Part shown: in pieces, positions 2,824-41,339 of the stretch
How positions within the stretch are numbered: the stretch's first letter is position 1
Layout: each line of letters opens with the position of its first letter
Assembly (NCBI GenBank): GCA_000442015.1
Contig: KE561122.1
Coordinates: forward strand, 1-42,538
Origin: Rozella allomycis CSF55
Taxonomy: Eukaryota
Direction of reading: 5' to 3'
DNA: 42,538 bases
The notes under the pieces: generated by a model
Told to the model about the DNA's origin: nothing
The model's database searches: none
The model's input: the letters and a program-made list of their open reading frames with translations, nothing else
Program-made: the position numbers and the translations under genes

Positions 2824-3421
2824 TCATACAGTTTTTGATTGTAGAATTAAAGCGACAATTAAACCATATAGACCCAACACTTCAGCAAAAATGAGCATCA
2901 AGACCATTGCCACGTAAACTCGAGATTCTTTAGCAAAATTTCTAACAGAGGAATCTCCCACAATTCCAACAGTCCAGCCTGCTGCAACACCTGATAATCC
3001 TACACTGAGACCAGCTCCTAAATGGGCAGCACCAGATTGAAGAGAATAATTTTGATTTGGCATTACAAACATTAACAAAACATTTCTTTACTTGATCCGG
3101 TAATAAGAACTGCCACAACTAGCCCATAAATACCGATAATACCAGCCATAACAACTGGAATTAACGATCGCATTATTAATTGAGGTTTAAACGTACCCAT
3201 ACCAGCAATACCGATACCTAATATGGTCAAAACATTATTTACATACCTTTTAATAAAAGTTATTTTCGTTACCTGATTTAGCTGTGCCATAGGCCGCACC
3301 TAACGCTAAATACAAATAAAGAACACTGTTTACCACAAAATATCATTGCAAAGGTTGCACCAGCAAAACCAAAAAATGGTGCATAGGGTGGACAGCGTTC
3401 TGTATATTCAAACACATCCAT
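2824..3421 (-). CDS. VMA11: V-ATPase 16 kDa proteolipid subunit (c/c', Vma11-like)
   Basis: Spliced '[66 protein letters not shown]'. Needs a tandem intron (3218-3272) and a GT-TG intron (3066-3091). The c' versus c assignment is less certain. Confidence 0.9.
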
Positions 3422-20316: not shown

Positions 20317-22638
20317 TTATTGACCAAAAACGACAGCCTTTAAGATTTTTCTAATTCCTAGCAATACTTTGGGCCGCTTTTTATAATCATAGAAGCAATT
20401 TACTGTTCCATCGATAGACAAATCATCTGTACGAATATTAGATATGACATCACTATGATGTGCAGTGAAGAAGCTCTTGAGTTCACCAATATCTAAATTT
20501 TCAGTGGATGCAAAGTTTAAACACTTTTTGCTTTCTTTAATGTCTAATTGAACTAAAAGTTTAGTTATAAAATCTAATTTCTTATTTAGTTCTGCTCTAT
20601 ATTTCTCTAGTCCGTGATCAAAAGATTTATTTAAAGCCAACGCCTTATTAGAGACATAAACTCTCACTACTTCAATTAATTTATGTATTTGGTTAAATGT
20701 GTCTACAACGTAACCTTCTTGTTTGGCTTATAAATGAAAAATCACAATAACTACCTTGTTGAGTGTAAGGATAAGCCAGAATGGCATCACATAGTAAATC
20801 TTTTAAAATAACTTTCTTTACAAGAGCATCACCTAAATTTGCTTTGAAAGAATTCGCGACTTCAGAAGTAATTTTCAGTGCGTCAAGAATATTACTTTGA
20901 ACAAAAAGTCGCGTAATGGATTACCTGCATATTAACACTGTATTGGTTCCAATTGAGTCTAAAATATTGGATGTGTAGATTATAAGAGATGATGGCTTAA
21001 CTTGAATATCGCCTATAAAATTGTCCTTTTTTAAACAAACTACCCTGTTTATAGATTGTTTCAAAGATTGGATGAATAATTGATTTTAGAAATATTTGAA
21101 GGCAGTTGTCTGACAAGTATTTAAATAAAGTGATAGTAAGGCTTTTGCTGCTCAGAATATTCCTCCATGAAAGTTCTTTATAGGTTCTTAATTGAACTTA
21201 CCCAATTCAAATGATAAAATTTCCATTAAGAGATCGTTCAATTTTGAATATGAAAGAAATACTTTCATGATATTTTGGATGACTAACTGTCGGTTTGAAA
21301 ATGGCACCTTTGTCAGGGTCAAAAATACAGGTTTTAGTATTGAAGGCCTTGAATTTATAAAAATCTTTTCTTGCATTGAAAGAAAAGTTACATTTATAAT
21401 GAAGGTATCTTCTATCGACTCTTTTGGCCAGCTAGATAACAGAAATTTAGTCTTTTCAATTGAGAATGTCAAAGATACCGATTCTTTGTCTTTTATTCGT
21501 TTCACAGCTGGAAAGAGGCAATAATAAAGTAATTGTGAAAGATCATCGATGAATTCCAAGTTTTGTTTGCCTATTGCTTTCACAATATTAAAGGTTTGGT
21601 TCCAAACCTCATTTATTGAAAATTCCATTAAATTTTACCACATTTTTCATTATTCATGAACAGCTTCATTTCTTCGTATGTCCATGCCAACTTCCCCTCT
21701 TCCAAACGAAATAATTGATTGGAATCGAAAATCGCTAGCAATTTAACAACAGAAAAGTACTCAAAGAGAATTTCAGCAAAATTCCAATCTTTTATATAAT
21801 TTTCACCTTCTATTATTATTCTATTGACCTTTTCAATGGAAATACAGTTGAATTCATGCATTGCAAGCTTTGGTAAAGTTATCTTTTGAATGTGTTGATC
21901 ATTTTTGATAATAAATTTGTATATTATTCTAACTAAGGTATTTTTTTGGTCATTCGTCAAATTCATGTTTTTTAAAACACTGACATTCTCGTCCAGATTC
22001 ATTATAAGCCTCTTTACACTTTCAGACATCTCCATTGATATATTAACATAATACAACTTTTGTGATCCGTTAGTTATGTCGGGGTCTTTGTTTCCTACCA
22101 CTTCATTTCCTTCAAGGCTACAATTTGATAAACACAAAATGTTGTCAATGTCATTTTCTTCATTCCTATACGGTGAAGCCTTATTTTATTTATTCTTGTG
22201 AAGAAATTACGGGATATTCAAATGTATGCGGCTTTATGAAACTGTTATTCTCTACTGTTTGTCTCATGTTCTCTCTTGTAATAATTTCCTCTTGCATGAT
22301 TTCTAAATTTTTAGTTAATAAAGATGGTGATGGGATTCGATACACGGGCTTAATATCATTGTAATGGACTTCTTTTTGGACTTCGCTTTCTATCATATCA
22401 AAATTCAATAACACTATGGCGTCCCTTTCTTGTTCTAAATGGTCTTTATTTGACACCGCTAATTTATTTTTATTCGGAATGATATTGACGCGCTCTTTAG
22501 GTTTACTGTCAACATCAACAGGAATATTCTCGTGCAACTGAGCATGCCTATCCCATACCAAACAGATCATTACAATTTTGATAAATCATGATATGTTTTG
22601 AGTCTTGATTTATCCCATGCAGCTTTATCCAAACTCAT
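20317..22638 (-). CDS. Multi-exon protein with a degenerate NF1-type RasGAP domain (pseudo-GAP), about 7 introns
   Basis: Micro-introns join ORFs 22190-22570, 21628-22137, 21188-21628, three short exons and 20317-20667. 'VPFSNRQLVIQNIMKVFLSYSKLNDLLMEILSFELELSWRNILSSKSLT…FLKSIIHPIF' aligns by eye with the neurofibromin GAP-related domain. The junction at about 21610-21638 is uncertain. Confidence 0.55.
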
Positions 22639-26767: not shown

Positions 26768-28006
26768 TTATTTTTTAACAATTTGAACAACATCTTCATC
26801 GTGCAGACAATGATCCAATCCTACTTTCTGTGGATTATGTTTAACTGATGATCCCCAAACCAATGCACTAATTTTATTATTAAACCATTTTGTACTATTT
26901 AAACTCCTTGATCAATGAGCGATGAATTGCATCACAAAAATCTTTAACCGTTCCAGCAGAAGACTTTAAAACAACTGGCGCGCTATAATCTGGAACTTGA
27001 CCTTTGGGCTTTGTATAACTATTTTTATTCAAAGCTATTGATTACATTCTTAAAAGACTCAAATATTGCCATGCCTTTTCTAACAATTCATCAAAGTTCC
27101 ATTCATGGTTGGCAGAAATTGGAACACAATGAGGAATCTTGTATAGAATATCTAATTCCTGAATAGAAATTGAATCAATCTTGTTTAAAACATAAACGCA
27201 AGGAATGTAGACTCTATTTCCTTCAATAACATCAATAAGATCGTCTTCCGTAGCATCGCAACGAATTTGAACATCAGCACTAGAAATACGATATTCAGAT
27301 AGAATCGCTTTCACAGTGTCTAAATCCAAGTGGGTCAAAGGAACAGTGCTTGTCATATTAATACCTCCCTTGTCCTTTCTACGAAAAACGATATTTGGAG
27401 GCTCTTTATTCAATCTTATTCCGAATCCTTCCAATTCTTTTTCAATAATTCTTTTATGTTGTAGCGATTTCAAAACATCAAGAACAATAAAAATTAATGA
27501 ACATGTTCTCGCAACGGCAATAACTTGTTTACCACGACCTTTACCGTCTTTGGCTCCTTCAATAATCCCTGGCAAATCAAGAATCTTATTCATAATTTGA
27601 AAGTCTCCATACTTGAATTTGAGCACCACGATATTGAATAACACCTGGTACGGTTGTTAAAGTGGTAAATTCATACGCAGCAACTTCTGAAAATGTGCCG
27701 GTAAGTTTGCTCATCAAAGTACTTTTTCCAACTAGATCTCACGACTATTTAACTAGGTACCAGATGGAAATCCTATAAATCCTACTCTAGCGATACCAGT
27801 TTTCGCAACATCAAAACCTTCACCAGTGGCACCGCCTCCTCCTTTTGGTGTTAATAATTCTCTTCGAAGTTTGGCCAGTTTTGCTTTAAGTTGACCAAGA
27901 TGGTAAGAAGTGGCCTTATTTTTTTGAGTACGAGCCATCTACATTTTTAAAATCGTGATTTAAATACTTCATTTTCAATTTCTTTGATTTTTTCAATTAC
28001 CGACAT
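26768..28006 (-). CDS. DRG1: Developmentally regulated GTP-binding protein 1 (Rbg1), 5 introns
   Basis: Motifs '[29 protein letters not shown]', 'GFPSVGKST', '[17 protein letters not shown]' and a TGS C-terminus ending '[10 protein letters not shown]'. Confidence 0.97.
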
Positions 28007-28137
28007 TTTTAAACAAAAAGTAAAAGTTGGACCCTTGTTTTAGAAAAATCCAAGATGCCACTTGACAAGAGTTTAAAGTAAATGACAAAATGGTTGAGAA
28101 TACTTTTTAAACAATGGTAAGGAATATGTTTTATTGA

Positions 28138-31100
28138 TTATTGACAAATGAAATGGGTTCTTCTTTTGATCCAATGCTTCACAGGAACATCAGAATTAAC
28201 AAGAAAAAAGATACCAACGAGATCCTTTTTAAAAGCAAGACTTGAAAGAAATTCATATCCAAATCCAAAATCGAATTGATGATATTCTTGATACCCAATA
28301 CCAATTGAAGGTTGATCGAGAGAAGACCAGAAAAGGGGACATTTAAATTTCGTGTGAATTCTTTTTGATAGATTCTGATTCTGATTTGTTAATTTCACTT
28401 TTTGGGTGGAAAACTTTTGTGGATTTACAACTGGTTGAATCCAAATCTATTTAATTAATAAAAGTTGGTTACGCAAGGAATTTTGCAATTGAATTCATTT
28501 GATTTGGCGTCTCTCATGTTGCCTCTGCCGAAATCCCAAACAGCGTTTCTTAATGATAAACCACAAATGTAGTATCCTTTGGTGGCTATTGTATTTTGTT
28601 TGGTGGATAAAATATTCGCTTCGAATTCCAGTAACTCCATAGGCTCTTTAGATTGCGTTGAATGATCTTTTAAGAATGCTATTTAAACATAGTGTAGTAA
28701 ATTACCTGCCAAGAGAGGCTCAGGGTGAATCATTTTAGAAAAATCGTGAACAATTGGCCATTCGAAGCCCTGGTGTTTTTGATTGTACCATTCATTAACG
28801 TATTCTAATCTACTGACGAAATTAGCAATCCAAGATGAAAAAGAAAACCAAATATTGCTAGCGAATGGAAAATCACTTTTTAGGAAATTTGGGAAATTGT
28901 CAGAATTAACAGAGTCAACAAATTGATTGATTTTATTTGAAAAGGGAGTGAAAGATCTGATTGATTGTAAAGTTTGTTCTATAATTTCTATTAGTAATTT
29001 TAAGCAAGAGTGATATTTAGTGTAATTGGAATAAATGATAGAATCCGTGCTAGAAGAGATTGTAAATTCAACATTCTTTTGAATGATGCAAGCGCTCAAC
29101 TTTGCAAGCCATTCTTGTAAAATTGGAACGACTTTTTGAACTTTTGATTCAAATAGAATATTAAAGTTTGTTTTTTGAACTGGCAGGATAATTGATAGTA
29201 AATGTAAATATTTAGAAGAGTTTAGAGCATCTAGAGCAGATGAAGCGACTTCTTGTAATCCAATTAAATTTGGAGAGAGTTTTTCAGGTAATTTTTCTAG
29301 AGCGATTTTGATTGTTGAATAATCTTGAGCAGAAATTAGAGAATGATAAAATTCAATTAGAGGATTGAAAGAGATTAAATCGTCTGAAGAATCTTTTTCA
29401 TCCCATTCAGAGGAAATGATTTCAGAGATGAACATTTGAAGAATTTTGAAATCTGATTGTTCAACAATTTTGGAAAAGACAACTTGAAAGATTGGAGAGA
29501 GAGAATCTCTTACTAATTTTATTGCTTGACCTTTTTGATATTTAGATTGTTGGCTGTTGATTGAATCATTTGATGAATTTAAAGCTTCTTCTTCAAAATC
29601 AATTTCTTTTGAATAAAGTTGAATTATTTCTCTTATTCTTTGAATCATTAAAATTAAATCATTCAAAGTAAAGTTATAATCTCTACTAAATCCATAAAAC
29701 TTGAATTGATTTCTTTCAATTAACACAACTAGAAGCAGAAATGATTGAACTAGAATCTAAATAAACAAAAACTAGTTACTTTACCTTTTTCATTACAAAT
29801 TTATTTTGTGAAATTGCATTAGTTAAATGAGAATGAATAAATTCATATAAAAATGAAACTTTTTGTTTAAAACTCAAATGAGAAATTTCCAAAATAGTGA
29901 AATTGCATTTTTCAAATATTTCAACAGAAAAATTAACACTTGCTTTATAATCACAAGACATTAATAACTTAAAATTTGATTTTACTTTTAATGAATCAAC
30001 AATTGCTAAAACTTTATTAATCAAGTCAATGGATTCATGAATATCTTGAAGATACAACCATTTCCCTTTCTCAATGCAATCCATTAATGTTTCATTTAAA
30101 GATTTAAATTCAGTAAATTTAGAAATTAAAACAGATTGAACAATATTCCCCTTTTCATTCTTTTCAGCAATTATTTTCAACGTTTGATAAACATCAATGT
30201 CATTTCTAGTAATAAATAGAAATTGATTTGTTGATGAAATATTTTCATAAATTTTATCAACAAGAGAAAATGATGAATTTTTATTAATGTCACAATTAAT
30301 TCCCTTCAATTCATCCCCTAGTGGAAATTCATTGATAATACTGAAAATTGCCTTTTTGAAACATTCAGGTTTAATTATTCTCAAAACAATCAATTTTTCC
30401 AATTTATTTAAATTTTGATTCGACTTGCCTGGAAAGATACAATTCTCTGAATCCTTGTTACATTGTAATTCTTCCCAACTAGTTTCTTCAATTGGAGTTG
30501 TAGCCTTGTTGGCGTATTTGCTAAACTCTGCAACCAATTTACTAAATTTCTGTAGTTGGCCAAGATGACAAATAGATTCCCATGATTTCTTATCAAGCCA
30601 TGATGCAGCTGGATTCGGTGGTATTTCATTACAAATTACTTCTTTGCATTTTCCATATAACAGAAATTCCCAGTATTCAGATGGAATATTTTCATTTGAA
30701 GATTTAATAGAAATATAAAACATCAAAAGATTAAAAATGGAATATTCAAGCTTAGAATTCAAATCTTTTAATATAAATAAACTAAACTGTTTAAACCAAT
30801 TAGCATCAACTTCATTTGTGAAATTTCTGAAATATTCCAGAAAATTATTTAGATTGAATTTATAGCAAGAATGAATATTTTGTAATTTATTTAATAGTAA
30901 ATAGAATTCAGCAGCAGATTGAAAAATATTTCTCTTCTTTTCAGATCCAGAGAGTTTAAAGAATTCTTTCTTCATGCTTGTTAATTGAATGACTTTTTTG
31001 CGATAATTTTCTTCATAGTGAGCTAAATTGTAAGAAGTTTCAGTGAATTGAGATTTGTCAACATCGCATAGACCAACTTGTCTTAATCTTTCTTCGCGCT

Positions 31101-34100
31101 TTAAATTTTGTTCAAAGTTTATCATTTCAACATACAGATTGGTGTATTCAGTTTTAGCTTGCAAAGAAGATTTGTTTAAATGTTCATTGAATAGTAAATG
31201 AGAAAGATTCTTTTTATTGAAATCTAAAAATAGAATTGAAATTCTTTCGTCTTTGATAAAATCATTTGGAATGGAATTTGAATAAAAGATAGAAATTGGT
31301 CTGAATCCAACTCTTTTTCTTAATAATTCATTGTTGTAGAAATTGTTTATTAAATTTGAATTTATTAATAGCAATTCAGATGGTTTCAAAAGAACATGTA
31401 AATCTTTTAAATCATTTGAAGTTAAATTGTTTAATGGAGAATCTAGACCAAACATTGATAGAAAATGATACAAGCCACAATGGGGGTCTAGAACAAGAAT
31501 TGGTTTAACAGATTTAATGTAAATCAAGATATTTTCTAATAAATCCAAATCAAATTCAACAGTTAAAGTTTTCTGAAATAGATTAACTTTGTAATCTTTC
31601 AAGAGTAGAGAAAGAATAAAATCTAGTGGATCAATGATTAAATTCAATTCATTAAAGATTAAATTTAATTTTTCTCTTATTTGAATTCTAGAGAATGAAT
31701 TGAATTGACCAAATAGAACAATAATTGATTCAACGTATAAAGAATTTGAGAGACAACGAGACAAGAGTTGATTTTTATCTTCAAGTGAATCTTTCCATCT
31801 TTTTATTAAAGAAATTAATTTTTCTGAATTGCTTAAAGTTTCTTGATATATTTTTTCAGTTTCATTTATATTTTCTTTAATTAAATTTTTTCTTTTTAAT
31901 AGATCATCTAAATCTTTTGTTAGATTAGATTTCTTAATTTCTAGAGAATTTATTCTATTTTTTTCATCTTGAATTGAATTGTTTATTTTTTGAATATTTT
32001 TTTCTTGAATTAATAAATCATCATGAATCTTTGAATTGTCAAACAAAGTACATTGAAAATTATAAATAGAAATAATCCAATCTCTCAAACAATTAAATTC
32101 TTCAATAAATTCAACTTGAACGCTACTTTTAAAAAATTCATATTCAAAAATTGAATTAAATTTATTTTTATCATTCTCATTCAAAGTAAAATTTAAAATT
32201 CTTTCATAGAGATTAATTTTATTATTTTCATTAAAGAAAAAACTTAAAAATGAGATTAATGATCTAACATTGGAATTTAATGAATTATTTAAATCTATCC
32301 ATTTTTCAAAACTAATAACTTTCTTTACATTTTTAAATTCATTCATAACAATTATAGATTGAGAATTTATCTTTTTATTGTAATTATCTTTATCAATTTG
32401 ATAATTTTCTAATAATTTATTTAACGAAATTTCCAACTTTTGTTTTCTGATTTCAACTTCTTTTAAATTATCTCTAACAAGATCAATTTGTTTTAAAATT
32501 TCATTTCCTCCAATTGTTATTTCATTAAATTCATTTTGTAGATTTGATAATTGTAATTTTAAATTTGATAAATGTTTTTCACAATCTGTTGCTTTAATTA
32601 AAGATTTCTCAATCATTTCAATTTCTTTTTCAATTGGAATGGAAAATTCTCTATAAATCTCCAATGTTTGAACTTGGAAATTTACTAAATAATCTTCAGA
32701 AATTCCAAATTGAAAAGCTAAATTTTGTTTTAATTAGATTTCAATTACCAACTTGTTTCAACTTTTCATAAAATATGGAAACTAGATATATTTCTTCATC
32801 ATTCACTTGATACTTAGGTTGAATATTTCTCTCCAAATAAATAACCCTGGAATTAATCAGAAAATTCTCTAATGTTTTTGGCTCCAAACAATTCACAAAA
32901 TGAACATTATTTCTAAATTGTTCATTCAACAATTTCATTCCTTTGATTTCAATTCAATTCAATCATTTTACCTTGTTCAATTGGAATTTGTTTATTAGTT
33001 GAAAATGTCTTTATTGCATTTTCTGTTAAATCAGATTCCAATATTTCTGTTATTTCACTTCCAGATAAAAATTTATCAATCATTTCATTCTCTTCTTCAA
33101 CATACACACAAAATTTATTATTAAATGATTTATAAACTATCGAATCAAAACATGAAAACAACACATCAAACGTTAAACCAGAAATATCACTCTTTTGATG
33201 TAAACTATTTTTATCACGCTTATTATTTTGTTCACGATTTTCATTGTTATTGACATCTGCAAGTAATTCTTCTCCACTCATCCCATTCAATTCTTCACCT
33301 ATATTCACTTCCCCATTCTTCACTTCTCCATTCTTCACTTCCCCATTCTTCACTTCACTTTTCAACTCTTTCTCAACTATATCTCTCACATCATTCTCAA
33401 CTCTTTTCAATTCAATTTGACAGATATCACACGCTTTTCCAACACACTCAAAAAAATAATCACAATCCAATTCAACCACCGTAACATTACAAGGGTCAGT
33501 CACCAGCGAATTACAAATATTAAAAACATCCACAGCATTTTCAATACTCAAATCAGGATGATAATTAACAATCTCAGTCACAGAATAGTATTCCCTCTTG
33601 ATCAATATACTATGCGAATATTGATACAAGTAAATAGTTGACTGCCACTCTTGCAACACACTCGTTGGAATATTCAAGTTTTTGCAAAATATATCAATTA
33701 TTTTGTTCTTTTCATTCGTTTGGAATAAAATTCTGTCGAGTAAATCTATAAAGAAAGATTTAATGAAAATATCGTCCAGATTGGAACATAGCTTCAGGGT
33801 TGTATTCAAACTACATAAAACATCATTGAAATTAAATGAATAATACAGATTGTTGTTGAAACAATAAGCATTGGTAGAAACTAGTGAGAATATTTGTAAT
33901 ACACATTGAATCATAAAGTCTATCAAGTCATGGTCATTTGGAAAACTTTTATACAATTTCAATTTTAATCTTTTAGAAAGTGTTGAATTTACATCATCGT
34001 GCATGTTAATTATTATTGAATGCGTTGAATTCAAAAAGTCTAATTCTTCACATGTTGCATTTGTGAAATTTACAAAAATTAAATCTGATTCAACGCTCTT

Positions 34101-37100
34101 TATTCTATTGTCATCAATGATAGTTTTATTATTAATAAACGGAATGATATTATCATCAATCGTTCCATGTATATTCAAAATGGAATTCTTTTCAAAGAAT
34201 ACAGATTTAGCTCCAATGGATGAAGCCTTTTGAATAACAATATCAGACAGTGAATCTAAACATGTATAATCATCATCATTTGAATACACCTGTTGCTCTT
34301 TATTATACTTTGCATGTGATACTTTAATTGGTATAGACTTACACTTGAGTGCTTTGATAACCTGTTCAGCCAATACAAAAGATTCAGGACCAATAAGAAC
34401 AATTCGACTACCGCTTCCTTTTAAAATTCTAGACAGATAAATCAACTTTGAAAAGTCATTAAATTCACTTTGAAAATCATCAACTTCATTAAACTGAGAA
34501 TGATCAGTTTCTCTCTTTTCATTAAACAATGCCCAATCATTTATAGTTTCATCATAGAAAATATCAAAAACAGTAGAATCATCTCTTGGAAGACAGGGGA
34601 ACAGATTATTCCAATCAATAACTGAATCAATTCTAATTAAATTTCTTTCATGGTACAATGTTTTGAAACCTTTATCGAATATTCTGTTTCTTGTATAATC
34701 AACCCTTGCACCGAATGACCATATAATGGAAAATAGACAATTAGCGATTATCCATTTTTTCTGTTCGTTAATTGTTAATCTTTCATAGTTTTTGCCAATG
34801 TTGTTGCAGAGAGATGCGAAAATTGATTTAAATTGAATGAGAACAGAGTTTTGACAGAAATTTGATAAGCCAAGTTTAGAAGAGGAAATCAAGTCATCCA
34901 CTTGACTCAAGAGAATGTTTATTAGTTTATTGCTAAAGTTTGAATTGTCTAGAAGAATTTGATTGGAGTTTATTAGAAAATTTATTATTGAAGATTTGAA
35001 GTTTGATTGATGAATGAATAGCCAAGGAGACTCAAAGTGTTTGGTTAGAGAATCTACATCAGATAAAGAAGTAATGGATGGTAACATTGAATCATTAATA
35101 CAGTCATCAATCAAACTGAAAACCAGTTCATTATCTTGAATTTCAAATACTAATTTAATTCTCTTCTTTGATATAAATGATTTAATCTTTTTGAAAGAAT
35201 TTGCATTAAATTTTCCAGAAATATGAAAGATACAATCAGAGTCTCCCAAATCAATTAAAAGAGAATTTATTATTTCAATAATATTGTGAACCCATGGAAT
35301 TTCTGTAATTGTATTTAATGTTTGTTTTATCAATGTTGATTTAAAAGAAAATGGTTCACCAAAAACAAAAGAAATTGAATTATTTGTTACTAGTCTTTTT
35401 ATTTCACTTGAGTAATCCATTTTAGTTTCATTGAATAAAGTTTCATTGATAGAATTTGAATACAATTCATTAAAAATATTTAAAGATTTCTCAATATTTG
35501 AAATTGATACTTTTGATTGTAAGAAATCTTTTAGAGAAGAAAAAATTAAAGAATTTTCATCAAGATTTTGATTTTTATTTGTGATTATTTTACTTGTTAA
35601 TTCAAAAAGAAAAAATCTATTTATAGAAACAGAATTTTTCAAAATAAAATGAAAAGAAATTAATTTTCTAGAAATTGAAAAACTATTTTTAAATCCATTA
35701 ATTTTCAAGATCATTTCAATTAGATTAAAATAATCTAGATCTGAAAAATTTAAAATTCTTAGAAAATTGTTAAATGAAGGATCTATAGATTGATCTATTT
35801 CTTCTTGATGTAAAATTATTGCGTGATCTAGAGAATATTTAAATGTTTCATTTTGGAATTTTATAGAATCTGATCTATTTAAATTTGCCATTGATAAAAT
35901 CTTTTTCAACGCCAACAATGAATCTGAATTTTTATTCAAAACATCATAATTAGAGTTATGCTTGAGAGAATTGTAATTTAAATCATTAGAGTTTATATTA
36001 GAAAATATACCTTTGATAACTAACCATTCCTTTAACATTAATGAACCTTGTTATACCGATAACAAATGAATTTACCTAACATTAATGTTTATTGCTTTGA
36101 TTACCTTTGATGTAATGCATGAAATTGTCACTCTTGTGGTTTAAATCTAAATAGATAATAGATCTTCCAGTAACAAGTGATAATTCATTCAACAAAATTT
36201 CTGTTAAATAATTTGTAAAGAATTACCATTTCCTTTGAATACAAACAATGAATTTTCATGAATAGATTCAAATAGATCAATAGATGATTTTTTAAAAGAA
36301 AATAGATTTGGAACAATTTTAATCATCTGATTTCCATATTTAATTTGATTAATTCCAACTTTTACATAAATTTCATTTTGATCTGTTGAATACACTTTAA
36401 TCATTGTTAACCATTCTTGTTCGATATACCCTTTATTCAACAAAATGTGAATAAATGTTTCAACTAGATCCAAATTATATTCAATCAATGAAATCAACAA
36501 TTGATATTTGATACTTAAAGTTGAAATGGTTGAAGTAGCTGAAATGGAAGATTCATTCAACTCTACACTTTTACTACCTTCACCTCTACTATTAATTCTT
36601 TCAATTTCTTCTTGAAGGGATTCTCTTTCTTTTTGTAATCTTCTCTTGAATTCTTTAAATGAATTGATATTCTTATTCAACATTAATTGTTCATACTCTC
36701 TTGTTATTAAGAAATTAAAAGACAAATAAATCATTTGATAAGAAAATTTAATAATCCAACTTCCAAACCCTTTCTCTTTACATTCAACAATCACTCCAAC
36801 AGATTCTCTCTTTATATTATCTTTAATACATTCATCTAATCTATTAATTAAATCAACTAGATTATATTCAAACACTATTGGTAATTTAAATTCAAAATAT
36901 TCAAAACTAATTATTCCTGTTACTATAAATAAATCACTCGTCAAGCCACTTTGACCTTTCAAGGGTAACAAATAAGATTTATCTTCAAATTTATTTGATT
37001 TCAGAAATTCTAAATATTCTTCTTTTATTTTACAAACAACAATTCTACAATCAAAAGGAAAACATCCATTCAAATCAACCAAATAGAAAGTTTCATTCAA

Positions 37101-40100
37101 TCTAACAAATCTATCTTTTGCTCCTTGAAATGAAATTATTCTTCCACACAAATTCATTATTTCTTCATCTTCTTGAAATATCAATCTTGGACATTTCTTT
37201 TTCATCTCTTGAATAAACCCATGCATTTTATTATTCAAACTTTTAGCTTTATTCAACGTTTCTTCAATATTAGAAAATATATCTTGATTTTGAATAAACA
37301 CCAAACAATTCCCAACCCTTGTTAAAATATCAAAATATGAATTATAAAGTTTTTCAATCAAATTAAATTCATTCCTTATTTTATCTCTTTCTCTCTCACT
37401 CTCCATTTGATAATAAAATACACTAAATAGATTAGGAAATATATTGGAAATTTCAATCAAATTCATCAAGATATTCTCAGATCTTATCAATTTAATATTC
37501 AACTGACTCAAACTCATTTCTCTACAACTAAATATCAATGAATTCAAAAGCAAAAGAATTTCACTAGAATTTTCAATACAAATTATCGATTTGTTCTTAT
37601 TAGAACTTTCTTGCTTGTTCAGATTATTAATGGATCCTTTAAGATTATTTACACTCTTCTTGAGTTTTCTACTTTCATCCAACTTTGATTCCCCTCTCAT
37701 TTCATTTACTTGTTTAAACTCTATTGTCATATTTCTTAACTTTGCTTTAACAATGTCAGCCTCTTCTTGTATTCTAGCTTCCATTGTTGCCATATCACTC
37801 AGTTCTACAATCATAGATCTCTGCAAGTCTAAATTCAATTCTATCAACTCTGCCAACGTCAATGTCTTTATTTTATTCACAGTCAAGTTCAACTGGCTCT
37901 TTAACAAGTTCCAATGCTTGTCTCTCAACTTTTCATTTCTCAATCCTCTAATCAAAAACAAATATCTAGCAAAGTTTTCAACTTTAATTCCAACAATTTT
38001 TAACGTCTTGTCCGGTCTTTTCACTTGTAATTCTCTAGCTTCAACTTCATCCAACGTCTTGCGAAAATTTCTAATCTTGCTTTCTATTTCTTCTATCGAA
38101 AGATAATAAAATAGCGATTGCAACCATTTTGGTATACTTTGCATCACATCACTCACTAAATTCCAAACAATCTCCAAAAATAGAAAAGTATTCAGGAAAT
38201 CTTCCAATTCATCAAAATTGGTTTTATCCATTTCTAAATATTCCTCCCTCTCATTAACAATCTTAATGCTCTCATATACTTTATCATATCGCTCTCGTAT
38301 TTTATTAACAATCATCGCCATAAATTCATACTTGCCAACTTCATCACAGGGAATCACATACTCCAAAATCTCTCGTTTAAAATCATTTAAACTTGATTTA
38401 ATAAACTCTTTATCAATCTCCAACTTTTTCATCAAATCTCTGCGAAAACTCTCCACATTGTCTTTTGCTACAGAATACAACATGCCAACCTTTTGTGGCC
38501 ACTTGAATACTTTCCAATACAATTCATTCAATTCCTTGTTCATTTCAAGAGAATTATTTTCAAAAATATCATAAATCATTTTAATCTCGTTGAATTCTTC
38601 TTTTAATACATCCACACTCTCATTGCTATATTTATCCACATTGGTTTTTAACATTTTCCATTCTTTACTCTCTCTAGGCAAAATATCCATCCCTTTATAC
38701 ACATTTGAATAATACTCATCCATTTTCATACAAATACCATGCATTCTGCTTGACATCTTTTTGATTATAAAATCCAACACTGCTTGGCACTTTTTGATCA
38801 ACATCTTTTTAATTTTAAAACAATCAACTTGCAAGGGAGCCATACTAACAGTATCACTGCTCAAGTATAAAATTTTCGTTCTTGCCTTTGAGTACCTCTG
38901 GGCCATTGCATCCAATTCTGTCAACTTTAAATTGTCCTCCTTTATCTCATATTCCAAAATAAACTCAAATTCCTTGTATTCACTCAACATTTGCTTGACT
39001 TTCGGATAACAACTTTTTAACACTTTCAATAGTTCATCGGAACCTTTGCTCATGAATNATCGGAACCTTTGCTCATGAAATCCTCGATTTCTTCTTCTTT
39101 AAAAGGCTTCAGGTAATTTACGCTTAACCCTATGTGATTAAACATTACATTTTCTATATTCATCACACATTCTCTGCAACTCTCCAATGGTAAATGAAAT
39201 AACTTTATCAAAGAATGCTCCAAGGCTGCAAAAGTGGGCTTTAAAACTATAGAAGAGAAGGATTTTTCGCCTTTATTCATTCCGTCTGTTATCCCCTTTT
39301 CTGGCTCACGACTTTGTATCACACCAATTGTAACTGTAAATAGAACAGGAACACTTTTCCCCTCTGATAATGAACTAATAAATGTATGCACATTATCTAA
39401 TGATAGATCAGAGTCACTCAAACTAACATTCCCCTCTTTAATCTCGGTTCTAATCATCATTAACGACAAAAAATAATTGGCCGAACGCATTATCAATGTT
39501 CTTACTTGAGTCTCAAACACAAAATTTAATAGCCTCAAATAATTCTTCAAACGACTATTCTCAAACGCCCTAACGCTTTTTGGATTCAAATCAAACGCTG
39601 TATTCAACTTCGCATAGATGATTTCCAATATACTTCTTGGCCATTTCAGACTCAACTTGCTTTGTATGCTCTGTGCATGCATCGTCAATTTTTCTTCCAA
39701 ATAATAAAATGACACTGGAAAATTGTTAATCTTGAAATAGAAAGTTTCCTGTAAAAATATTTCCTCAAAACATTTTATTATTGAGACTGTCGCCTTTTGT
39801 ACATCTGAATTAGATAAAAACATGTGAGAGGAAATTTCATGTGACACTTTGTTGAACTGAGATACCAAGTATTCTTTAAATTTTGGCTCTTTGACTTGCA
39901 AGTTGTCAGCGGCTATCACAGCGAATTTGCTTATATTTTCAACTTTGCTTTTCTTTTTCTCCTGGCGTCGATCATTCTCACTCTTCTTCATGCTAAAAAT
40001 ATTATCAATCTCACATTCATAAAAACATTCTCTCAATATTTCTTTCCCTCTTTCTGTCAATCTTTTCACACCAATCCTCTCTTTAATCCCCTTTTTCATA

Positions 40101-41339
40101 TTCTCAGAAATGGTGCAATATCCTTGATCAGGTTGTTTATCTATTTCTTGAAGTAGTTCCATTTCAGCAACGAATTGGTCGCGCAATTTGCTAGCGTTTT
40201 CCAATCTTTTATAGAACAAATCCCTGTTATCGTGCTCAAAAAATAAATTTAATCTTTTAGCACTCTTGATTACACTTGAATTAGTCCACTGTATTTTGAA
40301 AAGCTGGCTGTTCTTGTCATATCCTAGCACCTTACATGGGTACCATTCCCAACTTCCACTTCCATTTCTATGGTCAAAATATCTATTACTTTAATGGTAA
40401 ATAATTACCTAGAAAATGCTAATATACCATCCTCACCATTTTCAAGGGCATCTGACAGGACTTTGACTGGATCAATAAGTTCTTGTTCTGGATCATCGAA
40501 TAAATCTATAGAAACATCTTTTATCTTTATTTCAGACTCACGAAAGATGGATGACTTAATATTCAGCTTTGCTAAAAATTCTTTCTCTGTCTTGGCCTTG
40601 TACTCCGGAATATCCACAACTCCCGCCAACTGTATGTCATAATTCATACTATCTGAACAATCCTTTTCATGTATCATTTTTTTAACGTCCATAGAAAGGG
40701 GAGGAGCTGGGGGAACAATCGTATTTGCATTTCCCATTTTTGAAGTGATGTAATCATCAATAGATTCAAAATCGGTTATCATTCGTAAACTACTCTCTAT
40801 CTTGTTTGTGATTAATATTATACCTTCTTTATTTGACACGAATGCTGTTGATGGGCGTTGCTTCATTAGTAATGATTCCGCCTTTCTTAAGACATGGCTT
40901 TTGGGTACACGACTAGAATAAGGTCGGCCCTTAAATTTGAGTAAAGGCTTATTATTATTGGATTTTTCATCTCGATTATCGGATAATTTATCAGAGCATA
41001 TATCATGAACAAATCCAAGAGCATATGTACTTGATGATTGAAACGTGCTTCTCCAACCTTCCTTATTTTTTGTCCTGGCTTCTATTGCGGTTGATGGTCT
41101 CTTTTTCTTTCCCAGATACTCTTTTTCCACCATATTCAATGCGTTTTCCCAAGCGCTGGAATCAAATGTGACAACTCCCCGTGTAAATGAAGTTGCGGGC
41201 CTAGATTTCTGAGAGGTTTTATCTTGGGCCTTATTTTTTTCTTCCGACTTTGTCATTCTTGACATTAAATGTTTGTTTACATCCTCCAGAAGTGGAACAT
41301 AAATTGCCTGTCCTGGCAAATATGTTTCTTAATAGCCAT
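28138..41339 (-). CDS. Highly divergent axonemal-type dynein heavy chain (DNAH1-like N-terminus, degenerate motor), about 10 introns; assembly N at 39058
   Basis: N-terminal 'WYPCKVLGYD…KRLNLFF'; tail/linker 'LRNEKLRDKHW' and 'CPRLIFQEDEEI'; stalk coiled coils; 'NPAASWLDKKSW', 'GYYICGLSLRNAVWD' and the C-terminus 'HWIKRRTHFICQ*'. The start is uncertain: ATG 41339 needs a 23-nt intron, otherwise ATG about 41256. Confidence 0.9.
33297..33356 (-). repeat. 15-bp coding tandem repeat (about 4 copies, EVKNG) inside the dynein gene
   Basis: Repeated (c/t)ccattcttcacttc units on the + strand; translation EVKNG-EVKNG-EVKNG-EVNIG. Confidence 0.9.
39036..39080. other. Assembly artefact: about 21-bp duplication around a single N (39058)
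   Basis: atcggaacctttgctcatgaa(t) N atcggaacctttgctcatgaa(a); this falsely splits the dynein ORF (MSKGSD appears twice). Confidence 0.88.

Follow-up and report, generated by a model that had tools for sequence, protein, structure and literature searches.

The 58-nt spacer that interrupts a dynein-heavy-chain-like gene of Rozella allomycis CSF55 very probably consists of two tiny-intron units separated by a zero-length exon. Its most likely mode of removal is separate splicing of the two units, stepwise or recursively via the internal sites, to which we assign a probability of roughly 60% on the basis of the sequence. The spacer lies in a window of 42,538 nt, by which we mean the whole stretch of DNA analysed here (contig KE561122.1 of assembly GCA_000442015.1). 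The zero-length-exon anatomy recurs in a second gene of the same window, the V-ATPase c gene, and chance does not account for the doublet pattern. The features concerned are collected in Table 1, and splice junctions are written below with a slash.

Table 1. Features of the two doublets, of their host genes and of the introns used for comparison (window coordinates).
Feature	Position	Strand	Basis
Dynein-like doublet, unit 1: tiny intron, 29 nt, GTAATC...GTTAG	36104..36076	-	sequence + frame
Dynein-like doublet, unit 2: tiny intron, 29 nt, GTAAAT...ACAAG	36075..36047	-	sequence + frame
Zero-length exon: internal AG/GT between units 1 and 2, given as the G/G pair	36075..36076	-	
96-nt exon 5' of the doublet, ending …EILLNELSLVTGRSIIYLDLNHKSDNFMHYIK + G	36200..36105	-	
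Ordinary single intron, 26 nt, upstream of the dynein-like doublet	36226..36201	-	
Downstream exon of the dynein-heavy-chain-like gene; degenerate AAA1 region + AAA-lid domain	32972..36046	-	
Dynein-heavy-chain-like gene	28100-41330	-	
20-nt GT-AG intron, GTAATT...TAAAG, joining ORFs of 306 and 445 codons	40408..40389	-	
V-ATPase c doublet, unit 1, 26 nt	3272..3247	-	homology
V-ATPase c doublet, unit 2, 29 nt	3246..3218	-	homology
62-nt intron (31+31) with central AG/GT, in a gene without Pfam hits	21638..21577	-	

On the minus strand, the dynein-like doublet is arranged as ...CATTACATCAAAG, unit 1, unit 2, GTTCATTAATGTTAAAGGAATGG..., and its junctions are AAAG/GTAA, TTAG/GTAA and CAAG/GTTC, that is, AG/GT at all three. 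The first-pass annotation had proposed such a doublet of 29+29 nt with a zero-nucleotide exon in this gene, and its coordinates and junctions were verified, as was the sharing of three AG/GT junctions with the V-ATPase c doublet, which was seen at both loci. Its claim that removal of a single unit breaks the frame also held: with unit 1 alone removed, translation in the standard code runs for 12 codons past K and then meets TAA, and with unit 2 alone or nothing removed, it meets TAA after 7 codons. The frame is kept only when the full 58 nt are gone from the gene, and removal of both units then gave the expected in-frame peptide, ...MHYIKGSLMLKEW.... An 11-mer said to be common to unit 1 and the downstream exon is likewise present. 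In the flanking layout, the doublet stood as described, and the coordinates of the upstream intron were corrected to those of Table 1, which puts an exon of 96 nt between the two.

Among the GT..AG pairs that restore the frame from this 96-nt exon to the downstream ORF, the shortest spans 58 nt; the next solutions span 85 and 94 nt and use weaker sites. Once the doublet and all other curated introns are taken out, the dynein-like ORF extends over 3,557 stop-free codons, from which we infer that the doublet is absent from the mRNA. Splice sites were scored with a position weight matrix built on 29 seed introns, so that the scores are rough. By this measure, the unit 1 donor (5.42) is above the median of 4.77 in 37 single introns of the window, and the unit 2 donor, which is one of the internal sites, is near that median (4.75), with a unit 2 acceptor of 3.12. 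The other internal site, the unit 1 acceptor with G at -5, has an 8-nt score of 0.24, which falls below the minimum of 1.0 of the 37 single introns. Both units share the traits of the local introns, which are a GTA start, an end of T, A or C followed by AG, a length of 24-31 nt and disruption of the frame if retained.

The 37 single introns were curated by frame logic, with at least 30 open, coding-like codons on each side, and by homology; this curation was done by eye and was not exhaustive, and it draws on a single 42.5-kb window, in which two doublets are clean. All 37 are 24-31 nt in length (mean, 27.9), and nine are exactly 29 nt. The start is GTA in 36 of the 37 (A at donor +3), mostly GTAA, and G never occurs at acceptor -3 (0/37). 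No convincing intron of 32-54 nt was found in the window by eye. Candidates of 37-54 nt from unrestricted scans were rejected, since a 24-31-nt solution was available or since they ran antisense to a confident ORF or fell outside such ORFs, and a gene-finder without intron length limit over-predicted long introns, so its output served as a candidate list only. Three spacers exceed 31 nt, at 55, 58 and 62 nt; they are about twice the usual length, and all have AG/GT at the split. Three-unit chains and further doublets suggested by a relaxed scan were ruled out by frame or weak sites. A search for branch-point motifs in the introns of the window defined no clear position.

The standard code fits the window, with ORFs of about 1,000 codons open, and the ciliate code (table 6) was ruled out by these ORFs. 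The other genes (HYDIN-like, eIF2-gamma, DRG, NBS1-like and APC10) are in keeping with a flagellated organism related to fungi. In the DRG GTPase gene, codon 13 is directly followed by a 29-nt intron (27939-27967, minus strand) that was found by eye and missed by the automatic parse; its removal restores an N-terminus which we take to match the conserved N-terminus of the family.

To evaluate chance, introns were simulated with genuine ends and with interiors generated by a first-order model of the curated set of 37 (40,000 for the 58-nt length). A central AGGT giving two units of 24-31 nt occurred at frequencies of 0.0045, 0.0071 and 0.0009 in simulated introns of 58, 55 and 62 nt, respectively, and these values decreased to 0.0012, 0.0016 and 0.0001 when GTA was required after the split. 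Internal sites of at least the observed quality were obtained at 0.0009 (58 nt), 0.0005 (55 nt) and 0.0006 (62 nt). Moreover, the three-junction motif AGGTA-N19-26-AGGTA-N19-26-AGGT has two matches on both strands of the window (85 kb) versus 0.00 expected as the mean of 100 dinucleotide shuffles. Both matches are the two clean doublets, where frame or homology demands that both units be out.

The second doublet, in the V-ATPase c (proteolipid) gene, is a spacer of 55 nt (26+29) with AG/GT at all three junctions. Removal of both units gives an ungapped alignment across the junction to five of five homologues tried, and removal of either unit alone leads to stop codons; a strong case can be made that both V-ATPase c units must be removed. 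One exon of this gene is 100% identical to EPZ32660.1, a V-type ATPase of Rozella allomycis CSF55. A search with this exon against metagenome contigs recovered 80 generic V-ATPase c loci, with identities up to 72% and no close relative among them; 49 of these are intron-free between two motifs, 30 are without one motif and one has an unrelated gap. A third intron of the gene (3066-3091, minus strand) has no usable AG. Removing the 26-nt GTAAAG...TTTG segment at 3091..3066 best restores the V-ATPase c homology and leaves a non-canonical TG at the 3' end, which may be a 3' site defined by distance or a sequence error. The GT-AG alternatives there measure 62-92 nt only and all delete a conserved segment, which is also missing from the EPZ32660.1 model.

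The third long spacer, the 62-nt intron, differs from the clean doublets in its atypical internal sites, GAG/GTTTGG (a GAG acceptor and a GTT donor). A strong hairpin with an 8-bp core in a longer stem spans its central AGGT (-13.1 kcal/mol, z = -2.44); an equally good fold arose in 5 of 200 shuffles. Neither clean doublet folds in a way that could draw its two ends near each other (z = -0.31 and +1.44). In this one case, the hairpin would cut the effective length to about 20-28 nt, which fits a length-limited spliceosome.

With regard to the host of the 58-nt spacer, the dynein-like gene shows DHC_N2 (83 bits), Dynein_AAA_lid (42.7 bits) and Dynein_heavy (D6; 33.9 bits), in the domain order of a dynein heavy chain over about 4,000 aa. 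On the other hand, the P-loops of AAA1-AAA4 that mark a dynein heavy chain were not found: the Walker A motif, GxxxxGK[ST] or a relaxed form, has no match in the 3,557 aa. The downstream exon has five matches in 1.84 billion representative proteins, of which the only close one is RKP19495.1 (P0001), from a single-cell assembly of CSF55. No relatives of this exon were found in the metagenome contigs searched or among longer proteins. With the Walker A motif missing and only five database matches, the host is a very divergent dynein-like gene and probably not a working ATPase. Its GC content is about 25%, versus about 33% in neighbouring genes, and its ORF is intact. The collinearity with dynein AAA1 claimed in the first-pass annotation is plausible, but weakly supported: the AAA_6 profile, tested on the initial 348 residues that the downstream exon encodes, matched below threshold (18.7 bits versus 25.2 required), residues 53-223 aligning to profile positions 114-292. 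This weak match places the doublet junction roughly 60 positions into the AAA1 module.

Some irregularities of the gene and its models should be recorded. The RKP19495.1 model uses the same donor after ...MHYIK and then jumps by about 1.1 kb to ...DNSNFSNKL (window 34900-36110, minus strand), omitting about 365 open codons of the window; this jump probably reflects an annotation error brought about by the doublet. Between the model and the window there are also an insertion of 8 residues in the model and a few substitutions. In the window, an N at 39058 lies between the copies of a duplicated 21-nt stretch, so that FMSKGSD is encoded twice (39030-39090), and this duplication looks like an unmerged assembly join within the dynein-like gene. 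A second N of the window is at 2597. The 20-nt intron of Table 1 seems real, though it is below the range of 24-31 nt.

We propose that the spacer would behave as two independent 29-nt GT-AG introns placed end to end, the exon between them having zero length. If the spliceosome joins 5' and 3' sites that lie about 24-31 nt apart, the units would be excised singly and in either order. When unit 1 goes out first, ...AAAG would meet the GTAAAT of unit 2 and the AG/GT junction would be recreated; when unit 2 goes out first, the ...TTAG of unit 1 would meet the GT of the exon. The in-frame mRNA would be the doubly spliced form only. Recognition of two units is favoured by the normal length and end signals of each, by the length distribution, which is empty between 31 and 55 nt, and by the clean doublets being free of end-joining structure. 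Machinery that pairs sites 24-31 nt apart should pair the unit 1 donor with the AG located 29 nt away. In addition, the two units of the dynein-like doublet are without mutual similarity (P = 0.55), yet AG/GTA is intact in both clean doublets, which suggests that the internal sites are maintained. The low score of the unit 1 acceptor, the atypical sites of the 62-nt intron and the lack of a defined branch-point motif speak against recognition of two units. One metatranscriptome run yielded short, low-identity chance matches only and gave no coverage of the dynein-like doublet site.

The 58 nt may instead be removed as a single intron in one step, the central AG/GTAA then being an unused relic of adjacency or of an old duplication, a reading that we place clearly below even odds. 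The unit 1 acceptor scores under every single intron, and the 62-nt intron (21577-21638), with its atypical internal sites, must go whole, so that a spacer of about 60 nt may be removable in one step. However, an unused site should decay, and although the units are randomised, AG/GTA is kept in both clean doublets, for which the chance is about 0.001 per doublet. A single intron of 58 nt would also be an outlier beside 37 singles of 24-31 nt in a window where no introns of 32-54 nt were found, and the dynein-like doublet, unlike the 62-nt intron, is without a hairpin to shorten it.

It is improbable that the internal sites are there for alternative splicing, whether regulated or noisy, in which use of one unit would create a premature stop and lower expression. 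Either unit removed alone does bring a stop within 7-12 codons, but any tiny intron retained here does likewise, and the housekeeping V-ATPase c gene has the same architecture. Least of all do we credit an artefact, such as an assembly error, a pseudogene or an incorrect gene model, e.g. a coding unit with an indel error. The assembly does have a blemish elsewhere, at the N of 39058 with its duplicated 21-nt stretch, and the public gene models are poor at both doublet loci. Nevertheless, taking out the 58 nt opens an ORF of 3,557 codons, neither unit is a copy of the other, the V-ATPase c doublet with identical architecture is validated by homology, and the three-junction motif occurs at these two sites only in the window. 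Separate removal of the two units remains the explanation that we prefer.

The first-pass annotation suggested that the doublets arose by tandem duplication or by insertion of a new intron at a proto-splice site beside an existing one. A recent tandem duplication is unsupported, as the alignment of unit 1 with unit 2 of the dynein-like doublet is no better than that of shuffles, whereas the AG…GT flanks are compatible with an old duplication. The gapped similarity between the doublet and the first 40 nt of the downstream exon, around the 11-mer, is marginal (P = 0.042, uncorrected). Regarding the flanks, the single introns have exon AG upstream in 8/37, exon GT downstream in 5/37 and both in 1/37, in contrast to AG…GT outer flanks in 2/2 clean doublets. 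The one-unit motif AGGTA-N19-26-AGGT has six matches in the window, namely the four doublet units and two single introns. AGGT on both sides of an intron is a 4-nt direct repeat and could therefore mediate exact duplication. These data, with n = 2, favour an old duplication via AGGT microhomology over insertion beside an existing intron. In the tandem duplication model of the Rogers type, introns are reportedly gained or duplicated at AGGT proto-splice sites. The three AG/GT junctions are as expected after duplication of an AGGT-bounded segment; the units are dissimilar, so any duplication would be ancient. This model concerns the origin of the spacer and not its splicing route.

Zero-nucleotide exons have been described as ratchet points of recursive splicing in long Drosophila introns (PMC8605326; bioRxiv 10.1101/006163). 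The Drosophila sites resemble the Rozella spacer in that a 3' site abuts a 5' site (AG/GTAAGT-like) in sequence absent from the mRNA, and in that the first step restores the 5' site, as would be the case in Rozella. The differences are that the Drosophila introns extend over many kilobases, whereas the Rozella spacer measures 58 nt and each half is an intron of minimal size, and that use of the internal site is shown there experimentally and is deduced here from sequence. In Schizosaccharomyces pombe, a zero-length exon lies in the 336-nt intron of SPNCRNA.445, a non-coding snoRNA host, and only two instances are reported (bioRxiv 10.1101/226894). A 3' site adjoins a 5' site and the whole spacer is removed, as in Rozella; unlike in S. 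pombe, the Rozella cases are in coding genes, consist of 26-29-nt units and number two in 42.5 kb. Stwintrons of filamentous fungi are spacers from which two introns are consecutively removed, one being nested in a splice signal of the other. They share with the Rozella spacer the two consecutive removals, but the Rozella units stand side by side and each is complete.

Very narrow intron lengths are described for Paramecium and Nyctotherus (about 25 nt) and for Stentor (PMC5014332, PMC2633312, PMC9505925), and short introns of about 30 nt are mentioned for R. allomycis (PMC6349667). The Rozella intron lengths are similarly narrow and near the minimum, but Rozella differs in being related to fungi and in using the standard code. 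Tandem tiny introns with zero-length exons were not found described for Paramecium, ciliates or Rozella in the open-access literature searched, and the word 'intron' is absent from the main text of the Paramicrosporidium genome paper.

Finally, we tentatively extend the picture beyond the window, with a generalisation that we regard as doubtful but worth stating. The reach of the Rozella spliceosome may be capped at about 31 nt, longer spacers being removed piecewise at zero-length exons or looped out by a hairpin of the kind seen in the 62-nt intron. Tandem tiny introns would then be a genome-wide class that makes up several per cent of intron sites, at hundreds of loci, made by duplication or insertion at AG/GT and kept by selection on the internal sites. 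The public gene models are wrong near the unusual introns in both doublet genes, and annotation of Rozella and its relatives would gain from an explicit tandem-intron state. Such doublets would also offer a clean system for the study of intron gain, with AG…GT flanks that point to AGGT microhomology. Recursive splicing at zero-length exons has so far been known for coping with very long introns, and Rozella, a relative of fungi and microsporidia, represents the opposite size extreme of this architecture. If our proposal is true, stepwise removal can also arise where the length of intron that can be recognised has an upper bound, as with these units of 26-29 nt, and the doublets would provide a direct handle on how the spliceosome measures ultra-short introns.
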